Shown here in pieces: positions 1-59,170 of a stretch of 64,000 nucleotides of DNA. The DNA is taken from NCBI GenBank assembly GCA_021789995.1, contig JAJYIQ010000003.1, positions 7,767-71,766 on the forward strand, given 5' to 3'. The number at the start of each line of letters is the position of its first letter. Positions within the stretch are counted from its first letter, which is position 1. The DNA is from a bacterium. Lineage in GTDB: Bacteria; Patescibacteriota; Microgenomatia; UBA1406; GWC2-37-13. The position numbers and the translations under genes are program-made. The notes under the pieces were generated by a model. It saw only the letters and a program-made list of their open reading frames with translations. It was not told where the DNA came from and made no database searches.

Positions 1-216
1 GACAGGCTGACTATCGAACAATTCTTGAACTTATCAAAAAACGCCGGTAATATCGTCCAATCGGCAGACGCGGTAGGTAAAGACCAAATTGTCAGGGAAA
101 TATTCTTGAACCTAGAAGTTGATGAGGAAAAAGTGGCGTTGTATCGGCTCAAAGAGCCATTTGCCACACTGCTTAAACAGCGACAAATACTACCTAGTCG
201 GGACGGCGAGACTTGA
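1..216 (+). CDS. 3' end of an unidentified protein (open at the window edge)
   Basis: Frame 1 is open from nt 1 to the TGA at 214-216 (...IFLNLEVDEEKVALYRLKEPFATLLKQRQ...). No diagnostic motif. The last codons overlap the 3' end of tRNA-Pro on the other strand. A recombinase-like C-terminus is only a guess. Confidence 0.4.
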   Translation, partial: DRLTIEQFLNLSKNAGNIVQSADAVGKDQIVREIFLNLEVDEEKVALYRLKEPFATLLKQRQILPSRDGET

Positions 217-271
217 ACTCGCGACCTTACGCTCCCAAAGCGTACGTTCTAGCCATCTGAACTACGTCCCG
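198..271 (-). tRNA. tRNA-Pro (anticodon TGG)
   Basis: The reverse complement folds as CGGGACG-TA-GTTC-AGATGGCTA-GAAC-G-TACGC-TTTGGGA-GCGTA-AGGTC-GCGAG-TTCAAGT-CTCGC-CGTCCCG-A. The cloverleaf is canonical, with C1:G72 and A73 as in bacterial tRNA-Pro. No CCA is encoded. Confidence 0.9.
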
Positions 272-510
272 TATAAATGAATAATATTTTTAAGTAATTC
301 CCTTCCTTTTCCACTCTTCAAAAATTTTTCTCTTATTAATGCTGTCTTTTTAGAACTATATTCTTCTTTATAAACGAGTTTCCACGGACCTTTATTCTTA
401 GTGTATCCGCTTAAATTGTTGTTATGATACCACAATCGCTTATTTAAATCCGATGTTATTCCTTTATATAGCTTACCTTCTTTATTTGTTAAAACATAAA
501 CTATTTGCAT
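262..510 (-). CDS. GIY-YIG (URI-domain, COG2827-like) nuclease family protein, 82 aa
   Basis: Motifs seen: IVYVL...KLYKGIT (GIY/YIG), KRLWYHN (Arg), and REKFLKSGKGRELLKN (catalytic Glu region). The ORF has no stop of its own. It reads into tRNA-Pro nt 1-10 (TAC GGG ACG TAG) and ends at the tRNA U8-A9-G10. Confidence 0.85.
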   Translation of the reverse strand: MQIVYVLTNKEGKLYKGITSDLNKRLWYHNNNLSGYTKNKGPWKLVYKEEYSSKKTALIREKFLKSGKGRELLKNIIHLYGT

Positions 511-521
511 TATGCTTATTT

Positions 522-602
522 TGGTCGGGACGGCCCGCCTTAGGCGGGCGACCTTGCGGTCCCATCCGCCAAAGGCGGACTATCCATCTGAACTACGTCC
601 CG
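522..602 (-). other. tRNA-Pro-derived tRNA-like element (acceptor stem plus two GC hairpins, encoded CCA)
   Basis: Reverse complement: CGGGACG-TAGTTCAGATGGATAG-[TCCGCC TTT GGCGGA]-TGGGACCGCAAGGTC-[GCCCGCC TAA GGCGGGC]-CGTCCCG-A-CCA. The first 19 nt and the 3' acceptor strand are identical to tRNA-Pro at 198-271. There is no canonical D stem, anticodon loop or T loop. Confidence 0.55.
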
Positions 603-642
603 TGTTTTACTATTTTATCACACATTCGGGTACAATGATTGT

Positions 643-1182
643 ATGCGCCGGCTGCCAAGACTGACAAAAAAACGGGTCATTTCGGCCATCGCGGTAATCA
701 TAATCAGCATCATCGGGCAATTTCTTCTTCCATCGTCCAAATTACCCAATCCCTCGCCACCGGTTGCTCCTCCTTCAACATCACCAACATACGCCAAAGT
801 CATAAGAGTCATTGACGGCGATACCATTGAAATCGCCGGTGGTCAACGGGTACGCTATATCGGTATCAATACATCGGAACTGGCAACTGCCAAAAAGCCG
901 GATGAATGCTTTGCCCGGGCGGCTTCTGATAAAAACAAGGAGTTAGTCGAAGGCAAAACTATCCGCTTGGAAAAAGACATTTCCAACACCGATAAATATG
1001 GCCGCCTGCTACGCTATATTTATCTAAATGATTTGATGGTTAATGATTATCTGGTAAAAGAAGGTTATGCCAAAGCAACACCGATCCGACCCGATATCAA
1101 ATATGCCAAAATTTTTGCCGCCAGTCAGATAGAGGCAAAAAAGGCGGCGAAAGGTTTATGGCAACAATGCCAACAGTTGTGA
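643..1182 (+). CDS. membrane-anchored thermonuclease (staphylococcal nuclease/SNase family)
   Basis: N-terminal TM helix followed by VIRVIDGDTIEI...RVRYIGINTSE...DKYGRLLRYIY...NDYLVKEGYA, the typical SNase core. Confidence 0.8.
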   Translation: MRRLPRLTKKRVISAIAVIIISIIGQFLLPSSKLPNPSPPVAPPSTSPTYAKVIRVIDGDTIEIAGGQRVRYIGINTSELATAKKPDECFARAASDKNKELVEGKTIRLEKDISNTDKYGRLLRYIYLNDLMVNDYLVKEGYAKATPIRPDIKYAKIFAASQIEAKKAAKGLWQQCQQL

Positions 1183-18126: not shown

Positions 18127-18169
18127 CTTCTTGCTCTACCTCCGCCAGCTGGCGGAGAGCTACAGGGGA
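18127..18169 (-). other. duplicated 5' half of tRNA-Asn (nt 1-30) with a 16-bp GC palindrome in the D-loop
   Basis: Reverse complement: TCCCCTGTAGCTC-[TCCGCCAGCTGGCGGA]-GGTAGAGCAAGAAG. It is identical to tRNA-Asn nt 1-13 and 17-30, with AAC replaced by the palindrome. TATAAT and the GIY-YIG start follow it. Confidence 0.6.
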
Positions 18170-43787: not shown

Positions 43788-43953
43788 TCGCATCCTGGAT
43801 CTGCATTGTTCCCTCCGACACTTGGCGGTTGACAGTCATTATTTTACGGTATAAATAATATTCGCCGGCGGCCAATACCAGGAAAGCGACCGTGACGACG
43901 GTAGTTACCAGCAGCGTATGGCGGCGGATATAATTGGCAATATCTTTTTCCAT
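43756..43953 (-). CDS. small single-TM protein, hypothetical
   Basis: A strong RBS (AAAGGGAGGTGAGAG) precedes the ATG at 43953. One TM helix (LLVTTVVTVAFLVLAAG). Confidence 0.5.
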   Translation of the reverse strand: MEKDIANYIRRHTLLVTTVVTVAFLVLAAGEYYLYRKIMTVNRQVSEGTMQIQDAINGLKPTPMQ

Positions 43954-44039
43954 TCTCTCACCTCCCTTTATTTTATCGTACCATAGTTTTTGTCAGTCAA
44001 ACAGAAAAAATTATTGCGGATAATGTACAATACAAAAAC

Positions 44040-45386
44040 ATGTTTGATCAAAACCTGGCCATTGTTGATTTGGAAACGACCGGCTTAAGCGGCGGCTACG
44101 ACCGGATTATCGAACTGGCGATCATTCGTGTCGAGAAAAATAAAATTGTTGATCAATATACCACGCTTATCAATCCCGAAACTTATATCTCGCCATTTAT
44201 CGAAAACTTCACCGGCATTGCCAAAGAAGAACTCTTGACTGCCCCCCTTTTTGCCGACGTCAAAAACCGGGTAATCGACCTGTTAACTGATGCCGTTTTT
44301 GTCGCCCATAATGTCCGCTTCGACTATACTTTCGTCAAAAATGAACTGAAACGGACCGGCACTTCTTTCCGCGCCAAAACCTGCTGCACCGTCAAGCTGT
44401 CGCGTCGGCTTTTTCCTCGTTATAAACGCCACGGATTGGAATCGATTATAGAACGCTATAATTTTCGTTATAAACACCGCCACCGCGCCTATGACGATGC
44501 CTATGTTTTGTGGCAATTTTTGCAAAAAATAAAAAGGACTGTCCCTAAAAAAAAGGTCGAAGAAATATGGAAGGCGTTAACGAAATCGGTATACAGCAGC
44601 GATAAAAATCTGGTCAAACAGATTGATAATTTACCGGAATCGGCCGGTATTTATATTTTTTATGACAAAAACCAAACGGCCTTGTATGTCGGAAAAAGCA
44701 AAAATATTTATCACCGCGTCGTCTCCCATTTTACCGCCGACGGCCGTTCGGACAAACACCTGGCGATGATGAAAGATGTCGCCCATATCGACTACCGGCA
44801 GACGGCCGGCGAACTGGGCGCTCTGCTTCGCGAAGCCCAATTGGTGAAGGAACTGCAGCCGTTTTACAACCGCGTCTTACGGAAAAAGGATTTATTTTAT
44901 ACCGTCAATAAATGGAAAAACAAATACGGCTATTTCGAATTTAAACTGGCGACGGTTGACAACTTAGACGAATTGGATTTTGACAATCTTTTTGGAAATT
45001 TCAACAGCCTGTCACAAGCCAAGGATTATCTGACAAACCTGACGGAGAAATATAAACTCTGCTCGAAACTAACCGGGGTAGAAACGACCAAGTCGTCATG
45101 CTTTAACTACAAACTGGGTAAATGCAACGGCGCCTGCATCAGAAAAGAAAGCGCCGGAAAATATAACAACCGTTTTTTGATTGCCTATATCGAAAATAAG
45201 CAATTCCGCCCCTGGCCATATAATGGAGCAATTGAGATTTTCGAAAAAGATGAGGAAAACGAATTATACGAAACATTTACGATCAATAACTGGCGGTTAA
45301 ACGGTAAGCCTTTCGACCTCGACCGCTACCGGATCTTTTCCCAGTATTTATCAAAGTCAAAAACCATATCCTACATAAAATCATAA
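44040..45386 (+). CDS. DnaQ-type 3'-5' exonuclease fused to a UvrC/Cho-like GIY-YIG domain
   Basis: N-terminus: AIVDLETTGL, FVAHNVRFDYTF and HRAYDDA (DEDDh). Middle: GIYIFYDKNQTALYVGKSKNIYHRVVSHF...ELQPFYN (GIY-YIG as in the UvrC N-terminus). Confidence 0.8.
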   Translation: MFDQNLAIVDLETTGLSGGYDRIIELAIIRVEKNKIVDQYTTLINPETYISPFIENFTGIAKEELLTAPLFADVKNRVIDLLTDAVFVAHNVRFDYTFVKNELKRTGTSFRAKTCCTVKLSRRLFPRYKRHGLESIIERYNFRYKHRHRAYDDAYVLWQFLQKIKRTVPKKKVEEIWKALTKSVYSSDKNLVKQIDNLPESAGIYIFYDKNQTALYVGKSKNIYHRVVSHFTADGRSDKHLAMMKDVAHIDYRQTAGELGALLREAQLVKELQPFYNRVLRKKDLFYTVNKWKNKYGYFEFKLATVDNLDELDFDNLFGNFNSLSQAKDYLTNLTEKYKLCSKLTGVETTKSSCFNYKLGKCNGACIRKESAGKYNNRFLIAYIENKQFRPWPYNGAIEIFEKDEENELYETFTINNWRLNGKPFDLDRYRIFSQYLSKSKTISYIKS

Positions 45387-46000: not shown

Positions 46001-46405
46001 GGGGATGATAGGAATCGACGAGGAATCGGCACTTTTAAAAAATGTCAGGGCGCACCTGTTGCGTCAAACGGAAAAAATACTTGATAAAGAATCATCTTTG
46101 TCCCAAGCTGATGTAGCTTACTTGCAAGCGGTTAAGTCTGGTTTCAGACTTAACTATGCATACGCTGCTTAAGCGCGGCTGTTTGCAGTTTTTGTCCGAT
46201 TCAATCTGCAAATAGATAAACCAATCGGAATAGGATGACCGGAAGTTTTTGGTTGATCCGGAAGTCCGATAAACCCTCAACCAACAATCTATATACGGTT
46301 TGAATATTCCCCAAAATAGATTAGAGTAAAAAATATTCTATCCCTGGCTAAATTTTTTTCGAAGTGTTTCCCCGGACGCGGGTTCAATTCCCGCCATCTC
46401 CACCA
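46001..46405 (+). ncRNA. ssrA: tmRNA (ssrA)
   Basis: The 5' end is GGGGATGATAGGAATCGACGAGG. The 3' end is GGACGCGGGTTCAATTCCCGCCATCTCCACCA, a tRNA-Ala-like acceptor/T arm. The internal tag frame ends ...FRLNYAYAA-TAA (stop at 46170-46172). The resume codon cannot be fixed by eye. Confidence 0.9.
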
Positions 46406-57862: not shown

Positions 57863-59170
57863 TTATAAAAACCGGCTGACTTCTTTCCCCAACTTCACCG
57901 CATAGTTGGTACCGCGGTCGTAAGGATATGTCATGTCGAGGTTGGCAATATAAAAATTCTTGACTGGTGTGATAAAATTCGGTTTGCTTTTTAAGAAAGT
58001 TTTGTCAAATATCGGCTGCGCCCACGGCGCCTTAAATAGAAACGAATTGAGAATTGGTCCGCCGGCTGGCGGATGGAAATTGAAAATTTTCCTCAGGTGT
58101 GGTTTAACGAAATTAACAACCTCCTCTTTATCCATCTTTAACAATGGACTGTTGTTATCTACGTACCACCCGACATAAGTCAAATGATGATTTCCATAAT
58201 GTTTCTTGTCCATAAAGTTTGTGTGCTGGACAATCGCCATCATGGGAATTTTTTCATCGGTGACGTTCAACCAGTATGTTTTTTCCAGAATCGGTTTTTC
58301 CGTTTCCAATATCAATGTCACCGCGTGCAGAAATTTTATTTGATTCAATCGCTTAACGTAACCGGACGGCAAAACATCCTCCCCTATTTTAGTAATAACT
58401 GGGGTAGGTAACGTAGAAATAATAACGTCAAATGTCTCTGTTTTATTTGAACTTTGAATTTTAAACTTTGAGCTTTTAATTATCTTGTCTACACCACTCC
58501 CCTTCCTAATATCGATTCCTAACGACGTATTTTTTTTCTCCAGGTAATTAATTAGTGTTTGAAACCCTCCTTCCGCATATCCCAGCGTTTTGGTTCTTTT
58601 TTTGATCCGTGCCCAGATAAAAGCGGCTAAAATATTTTCCGCATATTTCCCGAACTTTTTCCGAAAAAGCCCTTGCCACAAGATTTCCCACCCCTCTTTT
58701 CCCATCGTTTTCGTTAAAAAATCCTGCGCTGTCTGCCGTTCGTAAACGGATAAAAACGGCGACAGTTTTAAAAAAGCGAGTATTGCCCCGGCCCGGAATT
58801 TCACCGGCCAGCTTAAAATCGGCAGTCTTAAGAAATCTTGCGGAGTATCTACGGGAAAAGCCTGCCTGCCGGCAGGCAGGTGCGGGAATCTTTCGGGAAT
58901 TATGCGGTAATAAGAAGCGGTTACCGGCTCTTTGAATATGAAGCGGTCAAAGCCTACTTCTTCGACAAACGATAATATGTCACTGTCACTGGTAAAAATA
59001 TGATGGTATGTCCGCTCCAGATACCAATCCCAGTTTATCACTCTAAATCCGGCAGCCAGCCCGCCAAGAACAGTTTCTTTCTCAAAAACGGTGACGAGGT
59101 GACCTTTTTTCTGAAGATAATAAGCGGCGGTCAGGCCGGTAAACCCGCCACCCAAAACAGCGATTTTCAT
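57863..59170 (-). CDS. FAD-dependent oxidoreductase (amine-oxidase/protoporphyrinogen-oxidase fold)
   Basis: Start moved to MKIAVLGGGFTGLTAAYYL...VFEKETVLGGLA (GxGxxG dinucleotide fold). The ORF carries three insertion-like tracts, described in the findings. Confidence 0.7.
   Translation of the reverse strand: MKIAVLGGGFTGLTAAYYLQKKGHLVTVFEKETVLGGLAAGFRVINWDWYLERTYHHIFTSDSDILSFVEEVGFDRFIFKEPVTASYYRIIPERFPHLPAGRQAFPVDTPQDFLRLPILSWPVKFRAGAILAFLKLSPFLSVYERQTAQDFLTKTMGKEGWEILWQGLFRKKFGKYAENILAAFIWARIKKRTKTLGYAEGGFQTLINYLEKKNTSLGIDIRKGSGVDKIIKSSKFKIQSSNKTETFDVIISTLPTPVITKIGEDVLPSGYVKRLNQIKFLHAVTLILETEKPILEKTYWLNVTDEKIPMMAIVQHTNFMDKKHYGNHHLTYVGWYVDNNSPLLKMDKEEVVNFVKPHLRKIFNFHPPAGGPILNSFLFKAPWAQPIFDKTFLKSKPNFITPVKNFYIANLDMTYPYDRGTNYAVKLGKEVSRFL
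58058..58073. repeat. GC palindrome TCCGCCGGCTGGCGGA inside the oxidoreductase ORF
   Basis: It shares the TCCGCC/GGCGGA arms (6-bp inverted repeat, 4-nt centre GGCT) and differs by 1 nt from the D-loop palindrome at 18141-18156. It encodes PPAGGP in frame. Confidence 0.85.
58445..58479. repeat. 5 x 7-bp AT-rich tandem heptamer (NTTTGAA-like) inside the oxidoreductase ORF
   Basis: atttgaa ctttgaa ttttaaa ctttgag cttttaa. It encodes SSKFKIQSSN on the minus strand. Confidence 0.75.
58861..58880. repeat. perfect 20-bp GC palindrome CCTGCCTGCCGGCAGGCAGG inside the oxidoreductase ORF
   Basis: The sequence is its own reverse complement. It encodes HLPAGRQA in frame and is embedded in AT-rich coding sequence. 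Confidence 0.85.

Follow-up and report, generated by a model that had tools for sequence, protein, structure and literature searches.

Nucleases of the GIY-YIG family have been described in association with hairpin repeats and with tRNA genes. SsnA of Neisseria meningitidis is a single-domain GIY-YIG protein of 94 amino acids (aa). It binds hairpin repeats and cuts only single-stranded DNA (ssDNA) just upstream of them (Chenal et al., 2025, PMC11893778). The ssnA gene is typically flanked by its hairpin repeats, and the authors point out that this repeat-gene-repeat layout is like that of an insertion sequence (IS). A role in modulating transformation has been proposed for Ssn in Neisseria; tRNA is not mentioned in the paper (PMC11893778). 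SegB of phage T4 is a free-standing GIY-YIG homing endonuclease encoded in a tRNA gene cluster. It is inherited preferentially with the flanking tRNA genes, and according to a recent report drives segmental amplification of tRNA loci (PMC2330249; PMC13096335). Here we analyzed a 64,000-nucleotide stretch of contig JAJYIQ010000003.1 (assembly GCA_021789995.1; Patescibacteriota, Microgenomatia), which is referred to as the window. Near its start, a gene for an 82-aa GIY-YIG nuclease is located between an intact tRNA-Pro(TGG) gene and an altered second copy of this gene, tRNA-Pro*, that carries two palindromes. Our analysis indicates that this is probably a tRNA-Pro(UGG) gene into which a selfish nuclease-plus-hairpin module of very small size was inserted, with one working tRNA kept. 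The module is composed of the GIY-YIG gene and the palindrome-bearing tRNA*.

Ssn/NTS is the closest described system. Both systems contain a single-domain GIY-YIG protein of ~80-95 aa without a DNA-binding domain, and the 82 aa of the protein in the window fall in this range. Both genes are flanked by short GC-rich hairpin repeats, and the repeat type co-varies with the protein. Solo copies of the repeats here, which are common in metagenomes, may correspond to the dispersed repeats of Ssn. The TCCCGAG..CTCGGGA hairpins at some loci related to the window module resemble the NTS core TTCCCGCG..CGCGGGAA. Unlike in Ssn, the hairpins here are located inside a duplicated tRNA copy and the module at tRNA genes, and the nearest solved relatives of the protein are UPF0213 and SLX1.

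SegB is the closest precedent for a GIY-YIG gene within tRNA clusters and for amplification of tRNA loci. The gene in the window is likewise wedged among tRNA genes, and the amplification recalls the arrays found at two related loci, L012 and L021 (loci and contigs outside the window are designated by L numbers). A presence/absence polymorphism like that of Seg-type genes is also observed, as relatives of the window (L177, L178/L179) have a single tRNA-Pro without the GIY-YIG gene. However, SegB has several domains and ~200 aa, contains DNA-binding modules and acts on duplex DNA in phage co-infections. The Seg-type architecture is an N-terminal GIY-YIG domain followed by C-terminal DNA-binding modules, ~200-250 aa in total. 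The protein here has 82 aa and one domain, the modules are chromosomal and found across phyla, and a palindrome-bearing pseudo-tRNA is not described for SegB.

No description of the tRNA/GIY-YIG/tRNA* layout was found in the open-access full-text literature, with subscription papers outside the scope; SegB, Ssn and insertions in rRNA genes of the candidate phyla radiation (CPR) were found instead. A preliminary description of the window, made from its sequence alone, stated that its author knew of no described system with this organization. The search agrees with this for the tRNA-flanked layout, but the pairing of a nuclease with hairpins resembles Ssn/NTS (PMC11893778).

Organization of the tRNA-Pro module

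The module is located on the minus strand, in the order tRNA-Pro*, 11-nt spacer, GIY-YIG open reading frame (ORF) and tRNA-Pro(TGG) (Table 1). The four-part order and its coordinates are confirmed as originally described, with the ORF recognized by the ORF listing and Pfam, and the intact tRNA by ARAGORN and Rfam. The ORF indeed has no stop codon of its own. Its last codons and the TAG stop are nt 1-10 of tRNA-Pro, with TAG at nt 8-10. No Shine-Dalgarno sequence is evident by direct reading of the spacer. CCA is encoded in the upstream copy alone, in agreement with the preliminary description; the intact tRNA-Pro lacks it and continues with CTAG. A promoter-like site upstream of tRNA-Pro* is probably the original tRNA-Pro promoter, although the number of promoter-like sites in the region is not above that in shuffled sequences in the consensus scan. 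No terminators were called between tRNA-Pro*, the ORF and tRNA-Pro.

Identical junctions are present in two other assemblies, the Logan contig L001 and contig L002 of a Levyibacteriota metagenome-assembled genome (MAG). An assembly artefact was therefore rejected. The L002 scaffold contains a gap of 10 N (L002 373-382) exactly where the altered tRNA copy starts, at the repeated tRNA 5' end. As this gap illustrates, the tRNA repeat breaks short-read assemblies, and such repeats confuse tRNA and gene callers.

The gene for a large serine recombinase converges on tRNA-Pro from the other side. Its last ~6 codons and stop (19 nt, 198-216) overlap the tRNA 3' end. The full gene is located at 456-1994 on the minus strand of L001, where the window coordinate equals 672 minus the L001 coordinate. 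This gene is probably a neighboring separate integrated element that uses the same tRNA.

The altered tRNA copy

tRNA-Pro* and the intact tRNA-Pro are identical at 58 of 75 positions, including the first 20 and the last 11 nt. The common ends, ACGGGACGTAGTTCAGATGG at 5' and GCCGTCCCGAC at 3', had been recognized in the preliminary description, as had the two GC hairpins, both of which are perfect. tRNA-Pro* retains nt 1-21, part of the anticodon loop with the 3' strand of its stem, the variable loop, the 3' acceptor strand and the terminal CCA. Its 7-bp acceptor stem is perfect and the discriminator base is kept. Palindrome 1 stands in for the 3' D-stem strand, nt 26, the 5' anticodon-stem strand and the first two bases of the anticodon loop (AACGTACGCTT). 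Palindrome 2 stands in for the inner T stem and the T loop.

Scoring against tRNA models, which the preliminary description had suggested, yielded no match. RF00005 misses 522-602 in an Rfam scan of 100-750 at E <= 10 with permissive filters (gathering score 29 bits), and ARAGORN does not call this region as a tRNA. Other Rfam matches in 100-750 (miRNA, frameshift element) were dismissed as noise. The region folds with -47.7 kcal/mol (z = -4.7), and none of 200 shuffled sequences is equally good. The minimum-free-energy fold is composed of the acceptor stem and a long rod, in which palindrome 1 pairs with palindrome 2, and is not a cloverleaf. A cloverleaf with D, anticodon and T arms is not present in 522-602, where one strand of the D stem (3'), one of the anticodon stem (5') and the T stem-loop have been substituted. 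We conclude that tRNA-Pro* is a non-functional second copy of tRNA-Pro. Its stems are copies of dispersed palindromic repeats that are also found outside tRNA contexts, which indicates that they are not engineered arms.

The acceptor stem, discriminator base and CCA that tRNA-Pro* keeps, its very stable fold and its location at the 5' end of the presumed transcript would also be expected of a functional tRNA-like RNA, in which arms were swapped for stable hairpins and which serves as an RNase P/Z processing handle, a decoy or a regulator. We consider this quite improbable. The element is accepted by no tRNA model and its predicted fold is a rod. Copies in relatives are usually truncated, with the 3' or 5' acceptor strand gone, are located on either side of the ORF and differ in palindrome positions, so that no architecture is conserved. 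In addition, the same palindromes are found inside protein-coding genes. The decoy or regulatory mimic proposed in the preliminary description finds no support for these reasons. Another of its proposals, a tRNA-punctuated transcript, is compatible with the anatomy of the locus. It is not a general requirement, because the altered copy is truncated in most relatives and cannot be processed like a tRNA.

Two further explanations of the hairpins were rejected. They are not terminators, since in general no T-run is located behind them and none was called. Quasi-palindrome correction of the tRNA's own stems does not account for their origin, as identical 16-mers are found in different tRNAs and phyla.

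The nuclease

The 82-aa protein matches the Pfam GIY-YIG family PF01541 at residues 3-68 with 58.5 bits (cut-off 22.6; E = 8.2e-16). The domain covers nearly the whole length, and neither Pfam nor the structure model contains a second domain or a DNA-binding domain. Y5, Y15, G17, R25 and E61 are invariant among 40 homologues, and H29 and N30 are nearly invariant. From the roles of their equivalents in I-TevI and UvrC, we take the invariant residues and H29 to be catalytic. The AlphaFold2 model has a mean pLDDT of 93 and secondary structure elements in the order E-E-H-E-H-H, in agreement with the GIY-YIG fold, in which helices pack on a three-stranded sheet.

The best matches of the model in Foldseek are UPF0213 protein BH0048 (1zg2), SLX1 (6seh) and EF2693 (1ywl). 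In a profile search of PDB sequences, BH0048 was matched with E = 2.5e-14. This search matched UPF0213 and SLX1 and no Ssn entry. UPF0213/COG2827 and SLX1 are thus the best relatives in both sequence and fold. Branched DNA is cleaved by SLX1 in a structure-specific manner, and a hairpin or cruciform substrate fits such an activity; SLX1 requires SLX4 and has a RING domain. L055, the one UPF0213-like relative that was sampled, lacks both a tRNA and a palindrome in its vicinity.

The module is absent from related genomes

A gene for an SNase-like protein (643-1182) diverges from the module, and its orthologue in L177 has 69% aa identity. The 40-nt flank between the SNase start codon and the tRNA (window 641->603) matches in L177 save 1 nt and is followed by a single intact tRNA-Pro(TGG), without the GIY-YIG gene and without a second tRNA copy. 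The 3' side of tRNA-Pro in L177 is occupied by two small ORFs and an IS1595-type transposase. The more distant L178/L179 have the downstream gene order polyprenyl synthase, PAP2 and response regulator in common with the window. In them, one tRNA-Pro adjoins the SNase gene, also without the cassette. The altered copy in the window is located at the ancestral position, behind the common flank and the promoter-like site, and the intact copy is located 3' of the ORF. These comparisons show that the module is an insertion relative to the related genomes.

The two tRNA copies differ in sequence. An internal segment of tRNA-Pro*, TGGGACCGCAAGGTCGC, is identical to the L178 tRNA-Pro allele at 17 of 17 positions and to the neighboring intact copy at 15 of 17. 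The intact copy (TGGGAGCGTAAGGTCGC) resembles the L177 allele. The two copies are different alleles, which excludes that one was recently duplicated in place from the other, and the cassette probably brought one of them along.

Modules at tRNA genes of other bacteria

A scan of one genome per species identified 53 further loci encoding relatives of the ORF at 35-65% identity. An intact same-strand tRNA ends 1-80 nt ahead of the start codon in 22 of these loci, and starts at or just past the stop in 18 (one is cut by the contig end). Thus, a member of this GIY-YIG subfamily directly adjoins an intact same-strand tRNA at 40 of 53 loci. The ORF is part of a tandem array behind a tRNA in six loci and has tRNA fragments alone nearby in four; in two the contig is too short to judge. 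The remaining locus, the UPF0213-like outlier L055, has no tRNA. Fourteen tRNA specificities are represented, or 15 with Pro in the window. The hosts include CPR, Bacteroidota, Ignavibacteria, Gammaproteobacteria and others.

In nearly all loci in which both flanks are readable, the other flank is occupied by the local tRNA in a second copy that carries palindromic replacements. This tRNA* is the 5' part, the 3' part or full length. The palindrome replaces or expands the D arm, the D/anticodon junction, the anticodon arm, the variable region or the T arm. The search for tRNA-linked small GIY-YIG ORFs and for empty sites proposed in the preliminary description was therefore successful on both counts (53 loci; L177, L178/L179). 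A mobile cassette that targets the 5' ends of tRNA genes was its first proposal. Insertion with an intact tRNA kept is supported by the empty sites and the 15 specificities, but the restriction to 5' ends is contradicted by the two arrangements, with the tRNA upstream in 22 loci and downstream in 18.

The stop codon is located inside the downstream tRNA in 10 of 17 loci, at nt 8 (five), nt 13 (three) or nt 36 (two), and all three reading frames are used. Given this variation in position and frame, the lack of a stop in the ORF results from how tightly it abuts the tRNA and is not a designed feature.

Interruption of the ORF in most loci, which the preliminary description had taken as a sign of a dead remnant, is not observed, as 48 of the 53 related ORFs are intact. 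In L012, an array (1365-2520) is composed of tRNA-Met followed by three ORF + tRNA-Met* units with a period of 341 nt. The three ORF copies differ by 6.6-15.6% in nucleotide sequence, with synonymous to non-synonymous codon changes of 15:12, 17:16 and 10:5 between pairs. The tRNA-Met* and palindrome segments differ by just 1-2 nt, up to the tRNA* 3' end. The protein and the altered tRNA segment are thus both maintained. As judged from codon changes and reading frames, the module ORFs are mostly intact and under purifying selection. L021 contains a different array (1377-2310), in the order tRNA-Thr, ORF, tRNA-Tyr* fragment, intact tRNA-Tyr and four tRNA-Tyr* 3' fragments, the first three of which are in tandem with a period of 111 nt. 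TCCGCCGAATCGGCGGA replaces the anticodon loop in all five tRNA-Tyr* copies.

Nuclease clades mix phyla, each with one tRNA species. The tRNA-Lys clade includes Gammaproteobacteria, Daviesbacteria and Saccharibacteria, and the tRNA-Asn clade includes Levyibacteriota, Gottesmanbacteria and Gammaproteobacteria. A tblastn search of phage and plasmid collections found distant homologues only, at 35-44% identity, and one phage locus that was inspected has no tRNA nearby. Phages as vectors find no support in this search.

The tRNA genes are classic integration sites, and the gene of the 512-aa recombinase with a Resolvase domain abuts the 3' end of the intact tRNA-Pro. The duplication may therefore be viewed as an attachment-site scar of recombinase integration, for example by this adjacent serine recombinase element, with the GIY-YIG gene as edge cargo. 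Like the module, integrase islands and prophages target tRNA genes, regenerate a functional tRNA and leave a partial tRNA repeat. However, the repeats in the window bracket just the 249-bp ORF, and the recombinase is located outside. Related tRNA/ORF/tRNA* units span ~0.35-0.45 kb, which leaves no room for a recombinase gene between the copies; none of these ~0.4-kb units has an integrase. Moreover, the repeat is often the tRNA 5' part (17 related loci) or the whole tRNA, nearly always modified by palindromes, and not the 3' part that integrases regenerate. The empty-site comparison with L177, which is recombinase-free, concerns the 5' side. An attachment-site scar has very little chance of being the correct explanation.

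A resident, non-mobile arrangement was also considered. In it, a housekeeping or repair nuclease of the host is co-transcribed with tRNAs, and the altered copy is a decaying tandem duplicate that passively collected palindromes. In line with such an arrangement, the closest relatives with solved structures, UPF0213 and SLX1, are cellular, a promoter-like site is located upstream of the mimic with no terminator between the parts, and palindromes are also found far from any GIY-YIG gene. It is nonetheless unlikely, as closely related genomes contain empty sites and the tRNA copies on either side of the window ORF represent distinct alleles. The same protein clade is found at the same tRNA species across phyla, and tandem arrays contain diverged but intact ORFs. 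Passive accumulation would also not yield a palindrome in almost every altered copy.

Palindrome families

Hairpins adjoin nearly all genes of the GIY-YIG subfamily that were examined. They form several classes: class A is TCCGCC..GGCGGA, class B is TCCCGA(G)..(C)TCGGGA, class C is CCTGCCTGC..GCAGGCAGG, and further classes exist. TCCGCC-N-GGCGGA is present in 15 of 55 loci of ~3 kb each. The window contains three occurrences of TCCGCC-N2-6-GGCGGA versus 0.06 expected. The palindrome 1 motif is found at the equal tRNA position in tRNA-Lys* of L008, L009, L013, L014 and L016, and variants related to palindrome 2 are found in L013 and L035. Palindrome copies within one locus are identical, including the loop. 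The classes track nuclease clades and not the host phylum.

The palindromes are not exclusive to these modules. A palindrome-first scan of metagenomes rejected this possibility, as the exact 16-mer TCCGCCAGCTGGCGGA occurs solo in many low-GC contigs. The scan fits a dispersed repeat with rare autonomous copies. Solo TCCGCCAGCTGGCGGA copies (L057-L136) have asymmetric flanks, A..C in 28 of 83 and A..G in 22 of 83, versus 12.5% expected for each. Several of them are located at the center of longer AT-rich inverted repeats. In L132, two TCCGCCAGCTGGCGGA copies are 42 nt apart and would read as an NPPAGGE repeat if coding.

One further class A copy and one class C copy are located inside a coding gene of the window, that of an FAD-dependent oxidoreductase (Table 1). 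An alignment of 26 orthologues indicated that both are in-frame loop insertions (HLPAGRQ in five, PPAGGP in two), which are absent in the two closest relatives. The palindrome sites are not covered by the matches in a PDB sequence search with the oxidoreductase. At a further variable site, two orthologues, P0149 and P0168, contain another insert of ~25-30 residues (PERSEGSL...SEILR; to FAQNDK in P0149), which may have arisen by translation of a different repeat element.

The in-frame insertions are similar to Rickettsia palindromic elements (RPEs), in which palindromes are present at variable surface-loop positions of a protein gene in some orthologues only. RPEs are ~100-150 bp long, and we know of no dedicated nuclease for them. 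The insertions here, in contrast, are perfect palindromes of 15-20 nt that co-occur with GIY-YIG genes. IS200/IS605 elements and the REP/RAYT system also combine a small enzyme gene with subterminal or dispersed hairpins, many of which are non-autonomous solo copies. They rely on HUH/Y1 transposases, which act through covalent intermediates. Strand transfer is beyond a GIY-YIG hydrolase alone, and tRNA target duplication is absent from those systems.

A model for the tRNA-associated module

The empty sites, the alleles and the related loci lead us to favor, as the likely explanation, a selfish nuclease-plus-hairpin module in the tRNA-Pro gene. Because one intact tRNA-Pro is kept, the host would lose nothing essential. 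By analogy to SsnA/NTS and SLX1, the palindromes may be cognate sites of the nuclease, which would bind a hairpin once it is extruded in single-stranded or branched DNA and cleave close to it. A break in tRNA-homologous DNA could then drive recombination with the tRNA gene on the recipient's chromosome, which is highly conserved, by homing or by a single crossover of an excised circle. Survivors would be limited to products that keep one intact tRNA. Such selection would account for palindrome copies on either side of the ORF, partial copies and tandem arrays (L012, L021). The module is probably expressed from the tRNA promoter as a tRNA*-ORF-tRNA co-transcript. More speculatively, RNase P processing would separate the message from its stop, located within tRNA nt 8-10, and the resulting non-stop mRNA could keep the nuclease level low. 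The window also encodes a tmRNA (46001-46405, plus strand; tag peptide DKESSLSQADVAYLQAVKSGFRLNYAYAA), which is relevant just to this speculative idea.

A number of points weigh against this explanation. The link between nuclease and palindrome is correlative and drawn from sequences. Mean protein identity is 0.449 within and 0.393 between palindrome classes, with none of 2000 label permutations as extreme, but the classes were assigned by eye, the permutation test ignores shared ancestry, and the taxonomy of short-contig MAGs is fallible. Among at least 80 TCCGCCAGCTGGCGGA matches listed, one has a GIY-YIG gene within 400 nt and seven have tRNA arm motifs nearby versus ~2 expected, a weak link, and the metagenome collection is so large that chance matches may contribute. 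Related loci were collected by peptide patterns such as WKLVYKEE, so that one subfamily was sampled; distant homologues in Rhizobium phages and in L055 have no tRNA linkage. In the empty-site comparison the 5' flank alone is comparable, and the 3' flanks differ. An intact, presumably cleavable tRNA beside the nuclease gene is awkward for classical double-strand homing. The step that makes the long target duplication and places the palindrome is left unexplained by the model.

The comparison with Ssn provides a further point of this kind. Ssn family members are single-domain proteins of ~90-100 aa, defined by CDD cd10448 as top match, or by a blastp match to SsnA (CAX49033.1) with E < 1e-10 and 75% coverage, and the pattern of the Ssn-related motifs (SRMs) is HGTCWYN(0-2)YYVSBRHN(0-5)WNVSBRGN(0-2)RNCYNB (PMC11893778). 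This pattern has no match in the window and the 55 loci. With one or two substitutions allowed, 15 and 126 matches were found, versus 7-16 and 130-176 in shuffled sequences, and no listed match overlaps the palindromes. The hairpins were therefore rejected as SRMs, as no signal above shuffles is observed.

Tentatively, and with more doubt than for the tRNA-Pro locus itself, the loci may represent minimal mobile elements, in which a nuclease of ~80 aa, directed by hairpins, and its palindrome spread from one phylum to another. They would use tRNA conservation as homology arms and always leave one working tRNA and a tagged pseudo-copy. Solo palindromes, including those in-frame in genes, would be non-autonomous derivatives, and the stop in the tRNA would couple nuclease dosage to tRNA processing. 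If so, tRNA genes are targeted not only by integrase-borne islands and introns but also by a nuclease cassette of ~0.4 kb, whose range extends from CPR bacteria to Bacteroidota and Gammaproteobacteria. Thousands of uncharacterized single-domain GIY-YIG proteins would gain a biological context, selfish spread at tRNA genes, and a connection to the newly described Ssn single-strand nucleases, themselves of interest as ssDNA-cutting tools. Such elements would also explain many pseudo-tRNAs, odd GC-rich palindromes in low-GC genomes and small in-frame protein insertions.

A second module and other features in the window

A second module is located at tRNA-Asn (Table 1). The TAG stop of its 87-aa ORF is in the D arm (GG-TAG-AGC) of the downstream tRNA-Asn, and the protein groups with the tRNA-Asn-linked proteins of L034 and L036. 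The tRNA-Asn(GTT) gene is itself split, and was missed by ARAGORN. The intron is a group I intron of 517 nt (Rfam RF00028, 77.4 bits, E = 1.5e-19) and encodes a 124-aa HNH endonuclease (17800->17426, ORF listing). One tRNA-Asn gene is thus host of two different nuclease-encoding elements.

Table 1. Coordinates of the module components and other features in the window (HMM, hidden Markov model).
Feature	Position	Strand	Basis or remark
3' end of large serine recombinase gene (512 aa, Resolvase domain, PF00239)	1..216	+	L001 gene table
Intact tRNA-Pro(TGG)	198..271	-	ARAGORN; Rfam RF00005 67.5 bits, E = 1.6e-14
Single-domain GIY-YIG nuclease gene, 82 aa	262..510	-	ORF listing; Pfam PF01541
11-nt spacer AAATAAGCATA, CCA of tRNA-Pro* to ATG	511..521	-	Direct reading
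tRNA-Pro* (altered second copy, mimic)	522..602	-	58/75 positions identical to intact copy; no tRNA-model match
Palindrome 2, GCCCGCC-TAA-GGCGGGC read on minus strand	533..549		Inside tRNA-Pro*
Palindrome 1, TCCGCC-TTT-GGCGGA read on minus strand	565..579		Inside tRNA-Pro*
Promoter-like site, TTGTCA, 18 nt, TACAAT	638..667	-	Consensus scan; ~35 nt upstream of tRNA-Pro*
tRNA-Asn(GTT), split in anticodon loop	17280..17868	-	Exons 17868->17835 and 17317->17280; junction read from sequence
GIY-YIG ORF, 87 aa	17848..18111	-	ORF listing; family HMM E = 9e-28, six-frame scan
tRNA-Asn* 5' fragment, TCCCCTGTAGCTC[TCCGCCAGCTGGCGGA]GGTAGAGCAAGAAG; D-loop palindrome 18141-18156	18127..18169	-	Homologous arrangement in L036, L034
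FAD-dependent oxidoreductase gene, 443 aa	57863-59194	-	Two in-frame palindromes
Class A palindrome in oxidoreductase gene, encodes PPAGG	58058-58073	-	Insertion in 2/26 orthologues
Class C palindrome in oxidoreductase gene, encodes LPAGRQ	58861-58880	-	Insertion in 5/26 orthologues

A long open frame at 43905-45383 on the plus strand, which possibly encodes UvrC, is matched weakly (E = 5e-4) by the profile of the GIY-YIG family.

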